From NCBI GenBank assembly GCA_903877885.1, contig CAIRFN010000006.1, forward strand, positions 86,054-150,053: a stretch of DNA of 64,000 nucleotides, in the 5' to 3' direction. Position 1 is the stretch's first letter, and every line of letters begins with the position of its first letter. The DNA comes from an uncultured Candidatus Berkelbacteria bacterium. GTDB taxonomy: Bacteria; Patescibacteriota; UBA1384; UBA12157. Shown one piece after another: positions 27,344-61,346 of this stretch. Position numbers and translations under genes: made by a program. The notes beneath the pieces were generated by a model, which was not told the origin of the DNA, made no database searches, and saw only the letters and a list, made by a program, of their open reading frames with translations.

Positions 27344-27380
27344 GCCGATGTAGCTCAGGGGTAGAGCAACTCTTTCGAGA
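27344..27380 (+). other. tRNA 5' fragment (acceptor GCCGATG plus D-arm plus anticodon-region remnant), Thr-like
   Basis: 'GCCGATGTAGCTCAGGGGTAGAGCAACTCTTTCGAGAAG' is near-identical to the 5' half of the adjacent tRNA-Thr; no 3' half follows it. Confidence 0.5.
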
Positions 27381-29652: not shown

Positions 29653-29716
29653 AGAGCGGAGGTTGTGACGATTACTTTGGTAATCGGATAGCGTTCGAGT
29701 CTCGCCACCCCGACCA
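29653..29716 (+). other. Partial duplicate of the tRNA-Pro 3' half with a 28-nt hairpin insertion, ending in CCA
   Basis: 'GAGCGGAGGT' plus insertion CGATTAC-tttg-GTAATCG plus 'GTTCGAGTCTCGCCACCCCGACCA'. Confidence 0.55.
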
Positions 29717-55423: not shown

Positions 55424-56503
55424 ATGGCTAAGCAATTGGCATTAATTTCCGGACCTTCCGGTACCGGAAAAGGTCCAGCTCTAGACGAAGTCCTAAAAAG
55501 ACTGGCTAGCACTATTCAGGTTGGCCGGATTGTGCTTTACACAAGTCGGCCGATGCGAGCGGGCGAAATTCCCGATGTCACCTTTCACTATCTGACAGCC
55601 GAGCAAATCAAAAATCTGGACCCAAATCGATACATTATCGGTCAAGTCCGGCTCGACTGGCAAGCTATTGACTTGGAAGAAGTAAAAACCGTCCTGGCCA
55701 ATTTCGATTTAGTTATCGTCGAGGTCTACCCAACGCTCGGCCAAAAATTATTGGAATGGCTGAAACTTCACCAGGAGTTTGATTCCTTTGAAGTTAAAAC
55801 TATTGCCATGGTGCCGATGAGTAATGAAGAAATGGCTGTGGCCGCCCTTATTTGTGGCACAACCATGGAAAACGCTCTTTATCTGACAATGCGTGGCAAA
55901 CTCGAACGACGCGCCAGCAAATCGGATACGCCCGAACAGATCCAAAGCCGCGCTTCTTTAGCCTACACTGAAATCCAGATGATGAAGGACTACCAACACC
56001 ACATCGTCAACCATATCGGCGAAGACAACAAAATCGGCTGGTCAAAACCGCTCTGTATTGAAGCTGATCGAGTGGTTCAAGAACTGGTTTCGGTTATCCA
56101 ACACGTTGAACCAAACCACTACCGAATCAGTTGGCATGATTACGAAGACGGTTGTAGTTTAAACAAAATTATTGAGGTCAAAAAGGGTGATGATCCGGAG
56201 CAAGCCGCCGAAAATCATCTTCGCCACTATCTTAAACCGAACATGTATGAACTGGAAGCCGTCACTCTGATTGATTTGACAAAGAAAGATAATCCAATCA
56301 AGAAATGGCGAATTGAAGTCGGACCGGTGTTTGAAGGGCCAGGCCCGGGCGACGGCAGCGATGCGTCGTTCGATGTGGTGATTTTCGTCGGCACAAAAGA
56401 AGAAATGAAACAAAAAGCCGAAGCGATGTGCCTGGTTTATTCTGGTTACAACCCAGATATCGGGCATTGCACAACTTCCTATTCGGCCACAATCGAAGAC
56501 TAA
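55424..56503 (+). CDS. P-loop nucleotide kinase-like N-terminal domain (guanylate-kinase-like 'ISGPSGTGKG') fused to an unknown C-terminal domain
   Basis: RBS AAGGGGA; P-loop at residues 6-15; gene looks clearly more GC-rich by eye than its neighbours. Confidence 0.5.
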   Translation: MAKQLALISGPSGTGKGPALDEVLKRLASTIQVGRIVLYTSRPMRAGEIPDVTFHYLTAEQIKNLDPNRYIIGQVRLDWQAIDLEEVKTVLANFDLVIVEVYPTLGQKLLEWLKLHQEFDSFEVKTIAMVPMSNEEMAVAALICGTTMENALYLTMRGKLERRASKSDTPEQIQSRASLAYTEIQMMKDYQHHIVNHIGEDNKIGWSKPLCIEADRVVQELVSVIQHVEPNHYRISWHDYEDGCSLNKIIEVKKGDDPEQAAENHLRHYLKPNMYELEAVTLIDLTKKDNPIKKWRIEVGPVFEGPGPGDGSDASFDVVIFVGTKEEMKQKAEAMCLVYSGYNPDIGHCTTSYSATIED

Positions 56504-56516
56504 TTAAGAACTATAT

Positions 56517-56550
56517 CTCCCGCTAAAAAATTAGCGGGTTTTTTATTTTT
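56517..56550 (+). terminator. rho-independent terminator
   Basis: CCCGCTAAAAAATTAGCGGG followed by TTTTTTATTTTTT. Confidence 0.65.
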
Positions 56551-56730
56551 TAATTTTAGCGAGTACGGGATTTACGGACAGCTCGGAAACCCACGGTTTT
56601 CCGACGTCCGGCATAAATGTCGGACTGCCTTCCTCTAGCGGTAAACCTCTGGTTTCCCGACCCCTTCCTGGTCCGAATCCCAAATCTACATTAAAGCAAA
56701 AAATTCACCGAAATGGTGAATCCTTTGCTT

Positions 56731-56804
56731 TAGCGCGTGCGGGATTCGAACCCGCGATCTACAGAATGAAAATCTGTTATCCTAGGCCTCTAGACGAACG
56801 CGCC
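56731..56804 (-). tRNA. tRNA-Glu(TTC)
   Basis: Minus strand: acceptor GGCGCGT, classic Glu D-arm 'TTCGTCTAGAGGCCTAGGA', anticodon loop TTTTCAT, T-loop GGGTTCGAATCCC. Followed by a hairpin plus T-run terminator (56700-56730). Confidence 0.85.
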
Positions 56805-56808
56805 ACAT

Positions 56809-57066
56809 CTATATTGTTAAGCTATCTCCGATATTTTCCTTTAAAAAATCTCTTTGCCCACCTTTTTTCTTAAGATTGATTTCTCTTCGACGAGCATCTT
56901 TCTCGGATAGATACGCCTCGTAATAAATCAATTTGTAAGGTTTATGCTTATTTGTGTAATTTACTTTTCCTAAGTTGTGTTCGATTAATCGTCTTTTAAT
57001 GTCATTACTATAACCAGTATAAGTGGTGTTGTCTCCAATACTTTTAATCAAATAGACGTAATACAT
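56809..57066 (-). CDS. GIY-YIG nuclease family small protein (UPF0213/YhbQ-like)
   Basis: 'YYVYLIKS...TYTGYSNDIKRRLIEHN' GIY...YIG motif; 85 aa. Confidence 0.8.
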   Translation of the reverse strand: MYYVYLIKSIGDNTTYTGYSNDIKRRLIEHNLGKVNYTNKHKPYKLIYYEAYLSEKDARRREINLKKKGGQRDFLKENIGDSLTI

Positions 57067-57067
57067 T

Positions 57068-57125
57068 TCAGGCCTCTAGCCCGCTAACCGCGGGTCCGCG
57101 TATAGCGGAACGAACGCGCCACATC
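57068..57125 (-). other. Duplicated tRNA-Glu 5' segment (acceptor plus D-arm start) interrupted by a 30-nt twin-hairpin insertion
   Basis: Plus strand 'ggcctctag[cccgctaaccgcgggtccgcgtatagcgga]acgaacgcgccacatcta' against tRNA-Glu 'ggcctctagacgaacgcgccacatcta'. Confidence 0.55.
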
Positions 57126-57265
57126 TAAAAATATTATATCATATTTTATCTCAATTGTCTATAACTTCTCAGTCTTGAAAGCTTGATTTTATGTTGAATT
57201 TTTGATACGATTAGTATGAAATGTATGAATTTAATTAAAATTATAAAAGGATAAAAAGTTCTAAT

Positions 57266-57886
57266 ATGAAAAAAAATCTCTTTCAAAACAAATCAATCGT
57301 ATCTGTAATTATTATTTTACTAATTGTTGCCATTATCGGTGGTTACCTCTTTTGGCAAAAAATTAATTCCACGGTGGCTATTGATACGGCTCAAATTTCC
57401 GCACCGCAAATGAATTTAATTTCCGCTAATGGTGGAACTTTGAAAGAGGTTTTTGCCCAGGAAGGCGATGTTTTACCGCCTAATTCCTTGATTGCTCGGG
57501 TGGATAACGAAATTATTAAAACTCGAACTGGCGGTGAATTGATTAAACTTAATGATGGCGTTGGTCGGGCTGTGAGCAAAGGCGAAGCAATTGCGACAAT
57601 TATTAGTCCTGGCGATTTGCAAGTTGTTGGTAAAATCGCTGAAAATAAAGGGTTGGATTCGATTCATGTTGGCCAAAACGCTTATTTTACAGTCGACGCC
57701 TTTGGCTCACAAAAGTTCTATGGCACGGTTAGCGAAATCGGCGCCACGGCCGACGTTGGTGCTTTAACATTCAATATTTCCGACAAACGAACTCAACAGA
57801 ATTTTGATGTTAAAATCAGTTATGATGTTAACGCCTATCCGGATTTGAAAAATGGTATGTCAGCTAAGATTTGGATTATCAAATAA
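57266..57886 (+). CDS. HlyD-family membrane fusion protein (short, EmrA-like)
   Basis: N-terminal TM, biotinyl/lipoyl-like 'ARVDNEIIKT', beta-barrel C-terminus. Confidence 0.55.
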   Translation: MKKNLFQNKSIVSVIIILLIVAIIGGYLFWQKINSTVAIDTAQISAPQMNLISANGGTLKEVFAQEGDVLPPNSLIARVDNEIIKTRTGGELIKLNDGVGRAVSKGEAIATIISPGDLQVVGKIAENKGLDSIHVGQNAYFTVDAFGSQKFYGTVSEIGATADVGALTFNISDKRTQQNFDVKISYDVNAYPDLKNGMSAKIWIIK

Positions 57887-57910
57887 ATTTGAAATTACGA
57901 AAGTTCTAAA

Positions 57911-59410
57911 ATGACTATTGGTAAAAAAAACGTCGATATGAAATGGATTGTTCTTTTGACCGTTATCATCGGGACTTTTTTGGGTCGACTTGATCAGACT
58001 ATTGTGGGTTTGGCCACTCCGAAAATTATTCAAGATTTTGGCATTACGATTTCTTCGGCCGGTTGGATTTCCACCGCCTACATTATTGCCAATGCGATTT
58101 TTGTACCGATTTGGGGAAAACTTGGTGATCTAATTGGTCGGCGCAAAGTTTATATTACCGGTTTTGTGGTTTTTATTATTGGTTCAGTTCTGGCTGCTTT
58201 TGCTTGGAATTTGGGCTCAATGGTGGTCTTCCGGGTGATTCAAGCCATCGCCGGTTCGGCTGATTATCCAACTGCGATGTCGATTTTATATTTTACTTTC
58301 AAAGATGAAAAAGAACGCAATCAAGCCTTGGGTATTTGGTCAGCGTCGTTTGCTGCGGCCGTGGTTTTTGGACCACTGATTGGTGGGCCGCTGATCGATA
58401 ATTTTGGTTGGCCATCGGTTTTTATGTTAAACTTGCCGGTCGGTATTCTTGGTTTAGCTATGGCCTATATGTTTATTCAGGAATCGCGATCTGAAGAAAA
58501 AATTGTCAATTTTGACTGGTTTGGCGCTTCATATTTAGGCATTGTCTTAGCCTCTCTAGTTTTAGTTTTGGACAAAGGTTTGAGCTGGGGCTGGTTTTCT
58601 CTAAATAGTGTAATTGCTTACACCAGCATTATTGTCTTTTTGATTGCGTTTATTAAAGTCGAAACAAGTCACCCTGAACCGATTGTGGATTTAAAATTTT
58701 TCAAAAACAGTATTTTAGTTAACACAATGGTAAACAATTTTATTACTTTTATGGGTATGATGATGTTGATTTTTTTAATTCCGATTTTTGTTCAAACTTA
58801 TTTAGGTTTCGATGCAACTAAAACCGGTTTTCTCTTTTTACCAATGGCTTTTGGCATGCTTTCCACTGCGCCCTTGGGTGGTGCTTTGAAGGGAAAAATT
58901 CAAGCCCGATTTATTATTATGGCCAGCTCTTTTGTGGCGGCCATTGGCATGTTTATGTTTATCGGACTGGATGCTAAATCTGGACCGTTAGATATTGGTT
59001 TACCATTATTTATCATGGCTGCAGGCATGGGTTTTGGGATGGCACCACGCACTAGTATCGTTGCTTCAGCTGTGCCGGCGCATGAAATCGGTAGTGCGTC
59101 TTCGCTTTTGGCCTTGGTTCGTAATATTTCCGGCGCTTTTGGCATTGCTATTGCCGGCACAATTTTAAATAACGGGGTTGAAAGTAAAATCGCTGATTTA
59201 ATGCAAAATAGCAGTTTTACTCTGCCATCAACTCCGGCGCTCCAAGGCGCTTATACTCAAATTTTCGCTGGTTTGGTTCAACTTCGAGCTCAAATATTAA
59301 CTTTCCGTGAAATTTTTGTTTTCGCCGCTGTCATTTCTTTGATTGGTGGCATTGCCGCTTACTGGATTCGAGTGGAAAAAGAATCCGATCTCAAAGTCAT
59401 TGTGGAATAA
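57911..59410 (+). CDS. MFS transporter, DHA2 (EmrB/QacA, 14-TMS) family
   Basis: 14 hydrophobic segments; 'GRLDQTIVGLATPKI' and 'LGDLIGRRKV' MFS motif A. Confidence 0.85.
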   Translation: MTIGKKNVDMKWIVLLTVIIGTFLGRLDQTIVGLATPKIIQDFGITISSAGWISTAYIIANAIFVPIWGKLGDLIGRRKVYITGFVVFIIGSVLAAFAWNLGSMVVFRVIQAIAGSADYPTAMSILYFTFKDEKERNQALGIWSASFAAAVVFGPLIGGPLIDNFGWPSVFMLNLPVGILGLAMAYMFIQESRSEEKIVNFDWFGASYLGIVLASLVLVLDKGLSWGWFSLNSVIAYTSIIVFLIAFIKVETSHPEPIVDLKFFKNSILVNTMVNNFITFMGMMMLIFLIPIFVQTYLGFDATKTGFLFLPMAFGMLSTAPLGGALKGKIQARFIIMASSFVAAIGMFMFIGLDAKSGPLDIGLPLFIMAAGMGFGMAPRTSIVASAVPAHEIGSASSLLALVRNISGAFGIAIAGTILNNGVESKIADLMQNSSFTLPSTPALQGAYTQIFAGLVQLRAQILTFREIFVFAAVISLIGGIAAYWIRVEKESDLKVIVE

Positions 59411-61017: not shown

Positions 61018-61071
61018 TCCAGACCTCCGGTCATAACCAGACCTCCGGTCATAACCAGACCTCCGGTCATA
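61018..61071 (+). repeat. 18-bp tandem direct repeat x3 (CCAGACCTCCGGTCATAA) embedded in tRNA-Lys 5'-fragment copies
   Basis: Three contiguous units; the third ends ...CATAG and runs into a TAGCTCAGTGG D-arm copy. Confidence 0.7.
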
Positions 61072-61204
61072 GCTCAGTGGTATACAAATCTAGTATTCCG
61101 GTCATAGAGCAGCATATTAAAATATTTGGGCCAGTAGCTCAGTGGTATACAGACGCTTCCGCGTCATAGAGCATCGCCTCTTAAAATTTTCAATACAGTA
61201 TGGA

Positions 61205-61313: not shown

Positions 61314-61346
61314 TTGTCGTGAGTCCGATCCTCACCTGGCCCTCCA
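61314..61346 (+). other. Duplicate of the tRNA-Lys 3' end (33 nt, 1 mismatch) about 37 nt downstream of the gene
   Basis: 'TTGTCGTGAGTCCGATCCTCACCTGGCCCTCCA' against the tRNA '...CACCCGGCCCTCCA'. Confidence 0.6.

Follow-up and report, generated by a model that had tools for sequence, protein, structure and literature searches.

A putative minimal GIY-YIG endonuclease cassette in the 5' part of a tRNA-Glu gene of an uncultured Candidatus Berkelbacteria bacterium

How does a gene for an 85-residue GIY-YIG nuclease come to lie between a broken 5' fragment of a tRNA gene and an intact copy of the same gene? This question is raised by a tRNA-Glu locus in a 64,000-nt stretch of contig CAIRFN010000006.1 (assembly GCA_903877885.1) from an uncultured Candidatus Berkelbacteria bacterium; we call the whole stretch the window, and all coordinates refer to it unless another locus is named by its L number. 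An earlier note on this DNA had seen in the locus the footprint of a mobile GIY-YIG cassette that inserted into the tRNA gene and duplicated its 5' part. The mobile reading gains support from alternative alleles of the locus and from recurrence of the arrangement at other tRNA genes, and we propose, with moderate confidence, that the gene belongs to a selfish endonuclease cassette of minimal size that has settled within tRNA-Glu, in the 5' part of this gene.

By inspection of the sequence, the region 57161-56692 on the minus strand is laid out as a single transcription unit in the order promoter, leader with tRNA-Glu nucleotides 1-11, 30-nt double hairpin, nucleotides 12-21, GIY-YIG open reading frame (ORF), tRNA-Glu and terminator (Table 1). 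The arrangement that the earlier note had described, a 5' segment with an insertion followed by the ORF and the intact tRNA, is thus in place in all its elements, with some distances corrected. The ORF does adjoin the tRNA, at 3 nt (ARAGORN) or 4 nt (Rfam) rather than the 5 nt first given. The upstream copy and its 30-nt insertion are likewise real, and the copy comprises 28 nt, a 7-nt leader (which contains the ORF's own stop codon) plus tRNA nucleotides 1-21, where the first ~27 nt of the tRNA had been claimed. Its two parts are exact repeats of the downstream sequence, stand in the same order as in the tRNA and lie exactly 30 nt apart; the two copies in the window are identical at 28 of 28 positions, and we found no further occurrence of the 28-mer or of the 30-mer within the 64 kb. 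Four metagenome contigs encode an identical protein in a locus that is identical throughout, and the arrangement is therefore not an assembly artefact of one sample.

Table 1. Positions of the elements of the tRNA-Glu unit, and of partial tRNA-Lys copies, in the window.
Feature	Position	Strand	Description
Sigma-70-type promoter	57133..57161	-	TAGACA, 17-nt spacer, TATAAT with upstream TG; 11 of 12 hexamer matches
Upstream partial copy, part 1	57110..57127	-	7-nt leader TAGATGT + tRNA-Glu nt 1-11 (GGCGCGTTCGT); 57127-57110 is an exact 18-nt direct repeat of 56811-56794
Double-hairpin element, G+C-rich, 30 nt	57080..57109	-	Between tRNA nt 11 and 12 (D-stem 5' strand) of the upstream copy
Upstream partial copy, part 2	57070..57079	-	tRNA-Glu nt 12-21 (CTAGAGGCCT); 57079-57070 is an exact 10-nt repeat of 56793-56784
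GIY-YIG nuclease ORF, 85 aa	56809..57066	-	Pfam PF01541, catalytic domain only; stop codon TAG at 56811-56809
Intact tRNA-Glu (anticodon UUC)	56730..56805	-	ARAGORN; Rfam RF00005 match at 56731-56804, 60.9 bits
Terminator-like hairpin	56692..56732	-	Core ATTCACC-ATTTC-GGTGAAT, then TTTTTT; closes the unit
tRNA-Lys partial copies	61063-61113; 61128-61184; 61314-61346		

A gap of about 7 bases separates the promoter from TAGATGT GGCGCGTTCGT, and the alignment of relatives keeps this promoter ahead of tRNA-Glu in L097, L100 and L101. On sequence grounds it is the native tRNA-Glu promoter, which would now drive the whole unit. A promoter scan between the ORF and tRNA-Glu gave none of similar quality, and the ORF has no promoter of its own. 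Six nucleotides ahead of its ATG, at the position of a Shine-Dalgarno sequence, stands AGAGG (57077-57073), with GAA between CTAGAGGCCT and the ATG; CTAGAGG is kept directly ahead of the ATG in L085, L089 and L093, the bases after it diverging, and AGAGG is kept before the ATG in four of four GIY-YIG cassettes at tRNA-Glu.

The insert measures ~316 bp and contains the one 85-aa GIY-YIG ORF. tRNA genes are classic integration sites, with part of the tRNA duplicated, as is well established, and the locus might on that account be what an island or prophage of the integrase type left behind at a tRNA attachment site. An insert of this size without an integrase or recombinase gene, a duplicated part that is the 5' and not the 3' end of the tRNA, neighbouring genes that comprise an HlyD-like/MFS pair and a guanylate-kinase-like gene, and a search of 2.9 million viral contigs that returned only 5 relatives, all of them weak, make this extremely improbable. 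A tRNA intron of group I or archaeal type was considered and rejected: the downstream tRNA is complete alone, and no intron family matched in 56000-58000 at E up to 1.

What kind of nuclease does the insert encode? Over residues 1-71 the protein scores 54.4 bits with PF01541 (curated cut-off 22.6; E 1.6e-14), and Y5, Y16, G18, R26, H30 and E62 are invariant across 60 homologues. Its AlphaFold2 model (pLDDT 96.2; elements E2-9, E15-20, H23-32, E44-52 and H55-67) fits the beta-beta-alpha-beta-alpha GIY-YIG fold, and Foldseek matches to the model are GIY-YIG domains only. By Pfam and AlphaFold2 all 85 residues belong to the catalytic domain, with no DNA-binding domain. The closest relatives, encoded at L085, L086 and L089, have 68-75% protein identity, with dN/dS of 0.08-0.21 and saturated synonymous sites. 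Purifying selection, invariant catalytic residues and the predicted fold together point to a maintained and probably active nuclease that consists of the catalytic domain alone.

Among solved relatives, the profile search recovered 1zg2 (E 9e-14), 1ywl (4e-8) and 7wme (0.003), and Foldseek recovered 1zg2, 7wme and Slx1 at E 3e-4 to 2e-2 (TM about 0.67-0.70 to the model for 7wme and Slx1), with I-TevI at 0.7 and UvrC at ~1. The nearest relatives by profile and fold are thus the UPF0213 proteins BH0048 and EF2693, At-HIGLE and Slx1, and by both measures, the second resting on a predicted structure, the protein belongs to the structure-specific SLX1/UPF0213 (YhbQ) branch. It resembles SLX1, At-HIGLE and UPF0213 proteins (YhbQ, BH0048, EF2693) in being matched best by them in sequence and fold and in having the same catalytic residues; SLX1, unlike the window protein, needs SLX4 and has a RING/PHD domain. 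We know of no link between UPF0213 proteins and tRNA genes or mobility. The protein is a catalytic domain alone, of this type, and probably reads DNA shape (a hairpin, a cruciform or branched DNA) and not a long sequence. Its family is large, with 22,709 clusters at 50% identity (E up to 0.001), mostly of 85-125 aa and from many phyla, and in a neighbour-joining tree its proteins cluster according to tRNA isotype and to architecture. Defence-system models (PADLOC) gave no match to the protein, and NCBIfam holds no named family for it.

Does the tRNA-Glu locus exist without the nuclease gene? Metagenome contigs scanned with the first 27 nt of the window tRNA-Glu yielded 17 loci, and the comparison of relatives with and without the ORF that the earlier note had proposed brought out empty alleles (L101 and others), an HNH-occupied allele (L097) and an ORF-less one (L100). 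The note had held that the same gene in all relatives, with no empty sites, would speak against an insertion; since empty alleles exist, that is not the pattern of this locus. In L095, L096, L098, L099/L106 and L107, non-coding sequence that resembles a promoter stands immediately before the tRNA. L101 has a homologous TAGACA...TATAAT-type promoter directly before a tRNA-Glu that is identical to that of the window, and its 44 upstream bases align with the window promoter and not with the ORF end (83% over 53 nt), which identifies it as an unoccupied allele. L097 has the upstream spacer in common with the window (132 nt at 72% identity), together with an identical TATAATATTTTTAGATGTGGCGCG promoter and leader, followed by a degenerate tRNA stub and a 143-aa HNH endonuclease ORF (phrog_2255, E 8e-34) that ends 4 nt before the tRNA. 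The same promoter in L100 is followed by an uninterrupted copy of tRNA nucleotides 1-22, a 115-nt ORF-less spacer and then the tRNA. Behind a homologous promoter the locus is thus polymorphic for presence and absence: empty in L101, HNH-bearing in L097, ORF-less in L100 and GIY-YIG-bearing in the window.

L092 and L093 differ in a like manner: they have the tRNA and its 3' flank in common, and carry an HNH cassette and a GIY-YIG cassette, respectively. The stub of the HNH cassette in L092 extends as far as nucleotide 43, its sequence being heterologous to that of the tRNA downstream; in L093, a distant GIY-YIG gene (~40% identity) follows a stub whose double hairpin sits precisely at 11|12. 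L089 holds serial cassettes, with stub and hairpin, GIY-YIG, a second stub and hairpin, HNH, and then tRNA-Glu. The HNH ORFs of L092 (387-842), L097 (163-648) and L089 (3374-3805) encode 143-144 aa (phrog_2255, E ~1e-32), stop 4-6 nt ahead of tRNA-Glu and each follow a partial tRNA-Glu copy that reaches the anticodon arm (coordinates for L092 and L097, as for L102/L103 below, are those of the oriented and not of the original contig). Judged by this arrangement, HNH is a second endonuclease family with what appears to be the same strategy at the same tRNA-Glu gene.

Some inserts at this gene lack an ORF altogether. L102/L103 (10180-10416) have two tandem units of ~115 nt before an intact tRNA-Glu, each made of tRNA-Glu nucleotides 1-22, a hairpin-rich spacer with TCCGCGGCC and the leader TTTAAATTAGGAATGT; L100, L104 and L108 have a single unit. 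We considered the ORF-less inserts of L100, L102, L104 and L108 as deletion derivatives of the GIY-YIG cassette and rejected the idea, global alignment giving no convincing homology beyond the promoter and tRNA parts. As a separate observation made by eye, the tRNA-Glu genes of L092-L108 that have the first 27 nt in common carry reassorted anticodon-stem and T-arm variants, the stem ACAGA being found with the T-arms GCGGG, AGGGG and ACGGG, which suggests, from these sequences, recombination inside the tRNA gene.

Is the arrangement peculiar to tRNA-Glu? We collected 80 genome loci with a homologous ~85-aa GIY-YIG gene, mostly from Patescibacteria and also from Verrucomicrobiota, Omnitrophota and others. 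A same-strand tRNA starts at -22 to +24 nt of the stop codon in 21 of these 80 loci, against 0.25 expected from the tRNA density of the same loci (Poisson P ~4e-33), and the tRNA-abutting genes cover 9 isotypes. GIY-YIG ORFs that abut tRNA genes, for which the earlier note had suggested a search in the same genome, are thus common in other genomes, while the window holds no second copy. At most of these loci the 5' untranslated region (5'UTR) of the ORF is a partial, at times near-full, copy of the same tRNA, broken by one or two G+C hairpins that are followed by 7-20 nt more of tRNA sequence and then the ATG; hairpin-broken upstream copies of the adjoining tRNA were found at Ser, Trp, His, Val, Cys, Glu, Leu and Ala genes. 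The interruption falls in the D-stem, D-loop, anticodon loop or T-loop, depending on the lineage, and hairpins are present in 16 of 22 tRNA-linked 5'UTRs versus 4 of 56 others. The duplications span 7-72 nt; in 19 of 21 loci their start falls at -11 to +1 of the tRNA, and the point inside the tRNA at which they end varies.

The copied piece is not always taken from the tRNA that it adjoins. Heterologous tRNA copies in L092, L009, L069, L034 and L053 show that a cassette can carry its own piece of tRNA, and the duplication need therefore not be a target-site duplication. A guide-like role of the tRNA-matching segments, also considered, is weakened by L034 and L053, whose upstream copy differs from the adjoining tRNA. 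Other layouts occur as well. In L011, L045 and L020 the order is mirrored, with an intact tRNA-Gly upstream and an acceptor-stem mini-hairpin downstream. In L049 and L061, from Verrucomicrobiota-type metagenome-assembled genomes (MAGs), the ORF is convergent with tRNA-Gln, and the tRNA 3' end and its flank are duplicated, over 68 exact nucleotides in L049; the related L066, L070 and L074 have 27-bp palindromic arms (CCGCGTAAAAGGCTTCGCCTCACGCGG).

These comparisons also bear on the view that the gene is a resident, non-mobile housekeeping nuclease of UPF0213 type that is co-transcribed with tRNA-Glu, the stub being a decayed tandem duplication with a palindromic insertion. Such a gene would be expected to be under purifying selection and to lie at tRNA-Glu in diverged relatives, as this one does; in Bacillus and Enterococcus, UPF0213 proteins are encoded by a single gene on the chromosome (PDB 1zg2, 1ywl), and the window has other tRNA fragments without an ORF. 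What such a gene leaves unexplained is the set of 21 of 80 loci at 9 isotypes, each with its own tRNA copy, the empty and HNH-occupied alleles, the conserved hairpin module and the finding of one unit twice within the same genome, and we regard this view as very unlikely.

The two-copy unit is a direct sign of movement elsewhere in the family. A 307-bp unit with 95% identity lies on two contigs of one MAG (L041 2973-3279 and L068 2973-3279) and consists of a GIY-YIG ORF between inverted repeats of ~22 bp (CCCGGTAGTA..CAAATTCAAAT); the similarity ends exactly at the outer repeat ends, the flanks are unrelated, and in L068 the left-end sequence recurs in the right flank. Inverted repeats of 17-27 bp tightly enclose the ORF in at least 23 of 73 loci, which score 26-54 where reversed-sequence controls score at most 21. 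L012, L030 and L044 have repeat-bounded ORFs just past the tRNA acceptor strand, flanked by 6-9-nt direct repeats of that strand.

Does a nuclease of this kind act as a homing endonuclease or as a transposase? The main rival to a homing-like cassette is hairpin-directed transposition, in which the GIY-YIG protein would be a structure-specific 'transposase' that nicks stem-loop or branched DNA, whether formed by the tRNA gene with its cloverleaf, by the double hairpin or by the inverted repeats around other members of the family; nicks set far apart on the two strands would leave the 7-72-nt duplications as target-site duplications, and the element would end in the hairpins. An SLX1/HIGLE/UPF0213-type protein, from a group of branched-DNA cutters, without a DNA-binding domain suits this role, as do the tight inverted repeats, the twice-found 307-bp unit, the acceptor-strand direct repeats, the near-constant start and varied internal ends of the duplications, and the identity of the two copies in the window, which is what fill-in duplication would produce. 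The window cassette, however, has no terminal inverted repeats (score below 20), and its double hairpin lies inside the upstream copy and not at the copy's end; in L100 and L104, which lack an ORF, the duplication comes without any G+C double hairpin, and fill-in cannot have produced the heterologous copies of L092, L009 and L034. We know of no GIY-YIG transposase, and full-text literature searches found none. On balance we give transposition a rather low, though real, probability and continue to favour the homing-like cassette.

The 30-nt element that breaks the upstream copy folds as two 15-nt hairpins, TCCGC-TATAC-GCGGA and CCCGC-GGTTA-GCGGG, with two 5-bp stems; the alternative fold is one long hairpin of -19.1 kcal/mol. 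Perfect twin G+C hairpins are rare, numbering 8 in the 621 kb of all sequence examined, and the 15+15-nt format recurs in the window, L089b, L093, L007, L022 and L060 elements. Over 7 elements, 95% of cells are paired, versus 78% in shuffled sequences and 29-52% with partners slid; both sides of the stem have changed in 5 of 12 pairs, and the observed covariation was reached by 0 of 500 shuffles. Pairing and compensatory change together indicate that the double hairpin is under selection and not a random break, which corrects the earlier description of it as an insertion that breaks the tRNA copy. Within the tRNA-Glu clade (window, L085, L086 and L089) the hairpin is near-constant, with TCCGCTAWACGCGGA and CCYGCGGYTAGCRGG, despite the saturation of synonymous sites in the nuclease gene, and L089b has a compensated CCTGC/GCAGG stem. 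Site 11|12 is occupied in six tRNA-Glu copies: those of the window, L085, L089 (twice), the L086 pseudo-tRNA and L093. The pseudo-tRNA-Glu of L086 (2420-2570) lies directly 3' of an intact tRNA-Glu(CUC) and has two double-hairpin inserts, one at the D-stem site known from the window, its loop enclosing an additional hairpin, and the other in the T-loop. By these sequence comparisons the double hairpin is a conserved module, under selection and linked to GIY-YIG cassettes in tRNA copies.

Three roles may be considered for the module. It could be a DNA substrate of the structure-specific nuclease, a 5' protector or insulator of the mRNA, or an independent small mobile element, and it is the likeliest candidate for a partner of the nuclease. 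A rival reading in line with the second option holds that stub and double hairpin are mainly an RNA device, a structured leader that shields or insulates the nuclease mRNA once the precursor with the tRNA has been processed, or a guard against mispairing of the stub with the downstream tRNA, with no role in DNA mobility. The hairpins do stop 13-29 nt short of the ATG, next to the presumed ribosome-binding site on its upstream side, and the ORF has no promoter of its own; where inverted repeats bracket the ORF, its two ends can pair with each other, and this pairing would likewise shield an mRNA released from a longer transcript. Some stems contain G-T (G-U) pairs. These pairs are, however, as frequent on the antisense strand (12) as on the sense strand (11) and thus give no strand signal for an RNA role. 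HNH cassettes occupy the same position without a G+C double hairpin, and the double hairpins of the L086 pseudo-tRNA stand downstream of the tRNA. In L060 (5527-5556), moreover, a twin hairpin lies in an intergenic spacer 45 nt past a gene's stop codon and far from any GIY-YIG gene, and its reverse complement is identical at 27 of 30 positions to the double hairpin in the tRNA-Ser copy of L007, a different genome. A purely RNA-level function therefore seems to us improbable.

How would a homing-like cassette work at this gene? We propose that a break made by the nuclease in a tRNA gene would be repaired by recombination from a cassette-bearing copy, and that the short, highly conserved tRNA sequence would serve as portable homology for moves of the cassette between genomes. 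The full 5' part downstream of the ORF may have been brought in by the cassette or duplicated at insertion; because it is there, the tRNA would stay functional. The displaced or duplicated 5' part would stay attached to the native promoter, and the nuclease gene would thereby ride on the transcription of an essential tRNA. The ORF would be co-transcribed with the tRNA and released by RNase P processing, the D-loop AGAGG acting as its putative ribosome-binding site. Loss of the cassette by imprecise deletion would kill the tRNA.

Several points weigh against a selfish cassette. The case for mobility comes from comparisons between loci and not from this copy itself, and the claim that the loci are orthologous rests on homologous stretches of 45-132 nt plus the tRNA, with differing 3' flanks. 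The window, L085, L086 and L089 cassettes all lie at tRNA-Glu with saturated dS, which also fits long vertical inheritance, and purifying selection on the gene is unlike a decaying parasite and could reflect a benefit to the host. The sequence-reading DNA-binding module of proven GIY-YIG homing enzymes (I-TevI, Seg) is absent, I-TevI being a weak structural match; a sequence-specific nuclease, moreover, would cut its own host allele, as the intact downstream tRNA holds the whole presumed target. The 28 of 28 identity of the window copies gives no sign that the downstream 5' part is foreign; it may reflect fresh duplication or gene conversion, and a selfish cassette leaves it unexplained. Finally, binning errors in MAGs could inflate the apparent phylogenetic spread.

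The strategy itself is known from elsewhere. Fungal mitochondrial mobile endonuclease ORFs (mORFs) form 'gene hybrids' in atp6 of Allomyces macrogynus and in atp6, atp9, cox2 and nad3 of Glomus; they bring a foreign gene end, leave the native end beside it as a remnant and are co-transcribed with the gene (PMC3630166). Like them, the window cassette is a free-standing endonuclease ORF within a gene whose displaced end is copied in such a way that the gene works, the ends can be heterologous, as they are in related loci while those of the window are identical, and double hairpins are found in those genomes too. Unlike them, it sits in a bacterial chromosome, targets a tRNA gene and replaces its 5' end, where mORFs replace the 3' end of a protein gene, and it encodes an 85-aa SLX1/UPF0213 catalytic domain without extra domains; for the Allomyces enzyme, cleavage has been demonstrated. 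The double-hairpin elements (DHEs) of chytrid and fission-yeast mitochondria are described in PMC10085805 (citing Paquin et al. 2000) as G+C-rich, with two adjacent stem-loops, and as suspected mobile elements. The window element is like them a short G+C-rich sequence in an A+T-rich genome, of a kind found in intergenic regions and in RNA genes and conserved across species. It differs in being bacterial and in being a fixed 15+15-nt module at one position of a tRNA copy before a GIY-YIG gene, with only one dispersed copy seen (L060), and the likeness drawn here is one of structure, sequence homology not being expected.

Among GIY-YIG enzymes, the closest parallel in location is SegB of phage T4, a homing enzyme encoded among tRNA genes that cuts the tRNA region of a related genome, with co-inheritance of flanks (PMC2330249). 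Seg proteins, in contrast to the window protein, exceed 200 aa, have DNA-binding domains and are phage-borne, with no tRNA duplication or hairpin module. Elements that target tRNA genes by tyrosine integrases likewise insert in the tRNA gene, bring a restoring copy and have direct repeats, but they depend on an integrase, enter the tRNA gene in its 3' part and measure kilobases. IS200/IS605-type elements are, like the cassette, very small, with hairpin ends or leaders, and as reported in PMC10690162 their TnpB nuclease aids retention and spread by cutting vacant sites; they differ in having a Y1 transposase and a RuvC-like TnpB with a guide RNA, with no homology to the cassette. Full-text literature searches, which left most subscription journals outside their coverage, turned up no earlier description of GIY-YIG cassettes of this small size at tRNA genes in bacteria. 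The host, the 5' end of a tRNA gene as target, the bare SLX1-type nuclease and the fixed double-hairpin module have thus not been described before in the literature that we found, and the window cassette is best regarded as one well-preserved example of a widespread family.

Other features of the window are set down here for completeness. Four of its 11 tRNA genes, Glu included, carry debris of partial copies, the Thr, Pro and Lys cases without an ORF. A copy of tRNA-Thr nucleotides 8-34 (27351-27377) lies 25 nt upstream of tRNA-Thr, and a copy of tRNA-Pro nucleotides 39-74 with a 24-nt hairpin insert (29655-29714) lies 22 nt downstream of tRNA-Pro. tRNA-Lys has two upstream 5' copies, each with a D-loop insert of 21-24 nt, and a downstream copy of nucleotides 43-75 (Table 1); one of these inserts contains the hairpin GACGC-TTCC-GCGTC. 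A tandem repeat with a unit of 18 nt, perfect over its 2.9 copies (CCAGACCTCCGGTCATAA; 61019-61071), continues into the distal pseudo-copy of tRNA-Lys. The G+C-rich spacer of 150 nt (56545-56690, minus strand) that separates the tRNA-Glu terminator from the neighbouring gene folds as a single long rod (-49 kcal/mol, z -1.85), matches no Rfam family and may be an uncatalogued small RNA. The best relative of a neighbouring 366-aa gene, besides an identical protein, is only 54% identical and lies on a 2.2-kb contig, and the attempt to compare synteny by this route was dropped.

What would the cassette mean beyond this locus? Its stubs and inserts can mislead tRNA annotation, and tRNA-based phylogeny or binning in MAGs. 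The finding also offers a testable link between an SLX1-like structure-specific nuclease and a defined double-hairpin DNA or RNA module, which bears on the mitochondrial double-hairpin elements. More broadly, and with little confidence, we suggest that the ~85-aa GIY-YIG proteins of SLX1/UPF0213 type may mark a new class of minimal (~300-bp) autonomous bacterial mobile elements, in which a bare structure-specific nuclease domain finds its target by nucleic-acid structure or homology. If this is true, the double hairpin or inverted repeats and the tRNA-matching flanks, even as a guide-like scaffold, would direct targeting in place of a protein DNA-binding domain; tRNA genes would be favoured as conserved, cloverleaf-forming and highly transcribed sequences, and the debris at 4 of 11 tRNA genes in the window would be footprints of such events. 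If the favoured cassette reading itself is correct, the logic of the mitochondrial mORFs, which enter a gene, supply a spare of the end that they displace and use the transcription of the host, would extend to bacterial chromosomes and tRNA genes, with the smallest nuclease so far implicated in an mORF-like role. The cassette reading would also explain the thousands of mini-genes annotated as 'GIY-YIG nuclease family protein' across Patescibacteria and other phyla, and with them the tRNA genes ringed by fragments and the mosaic tRNA genes of these lineages.

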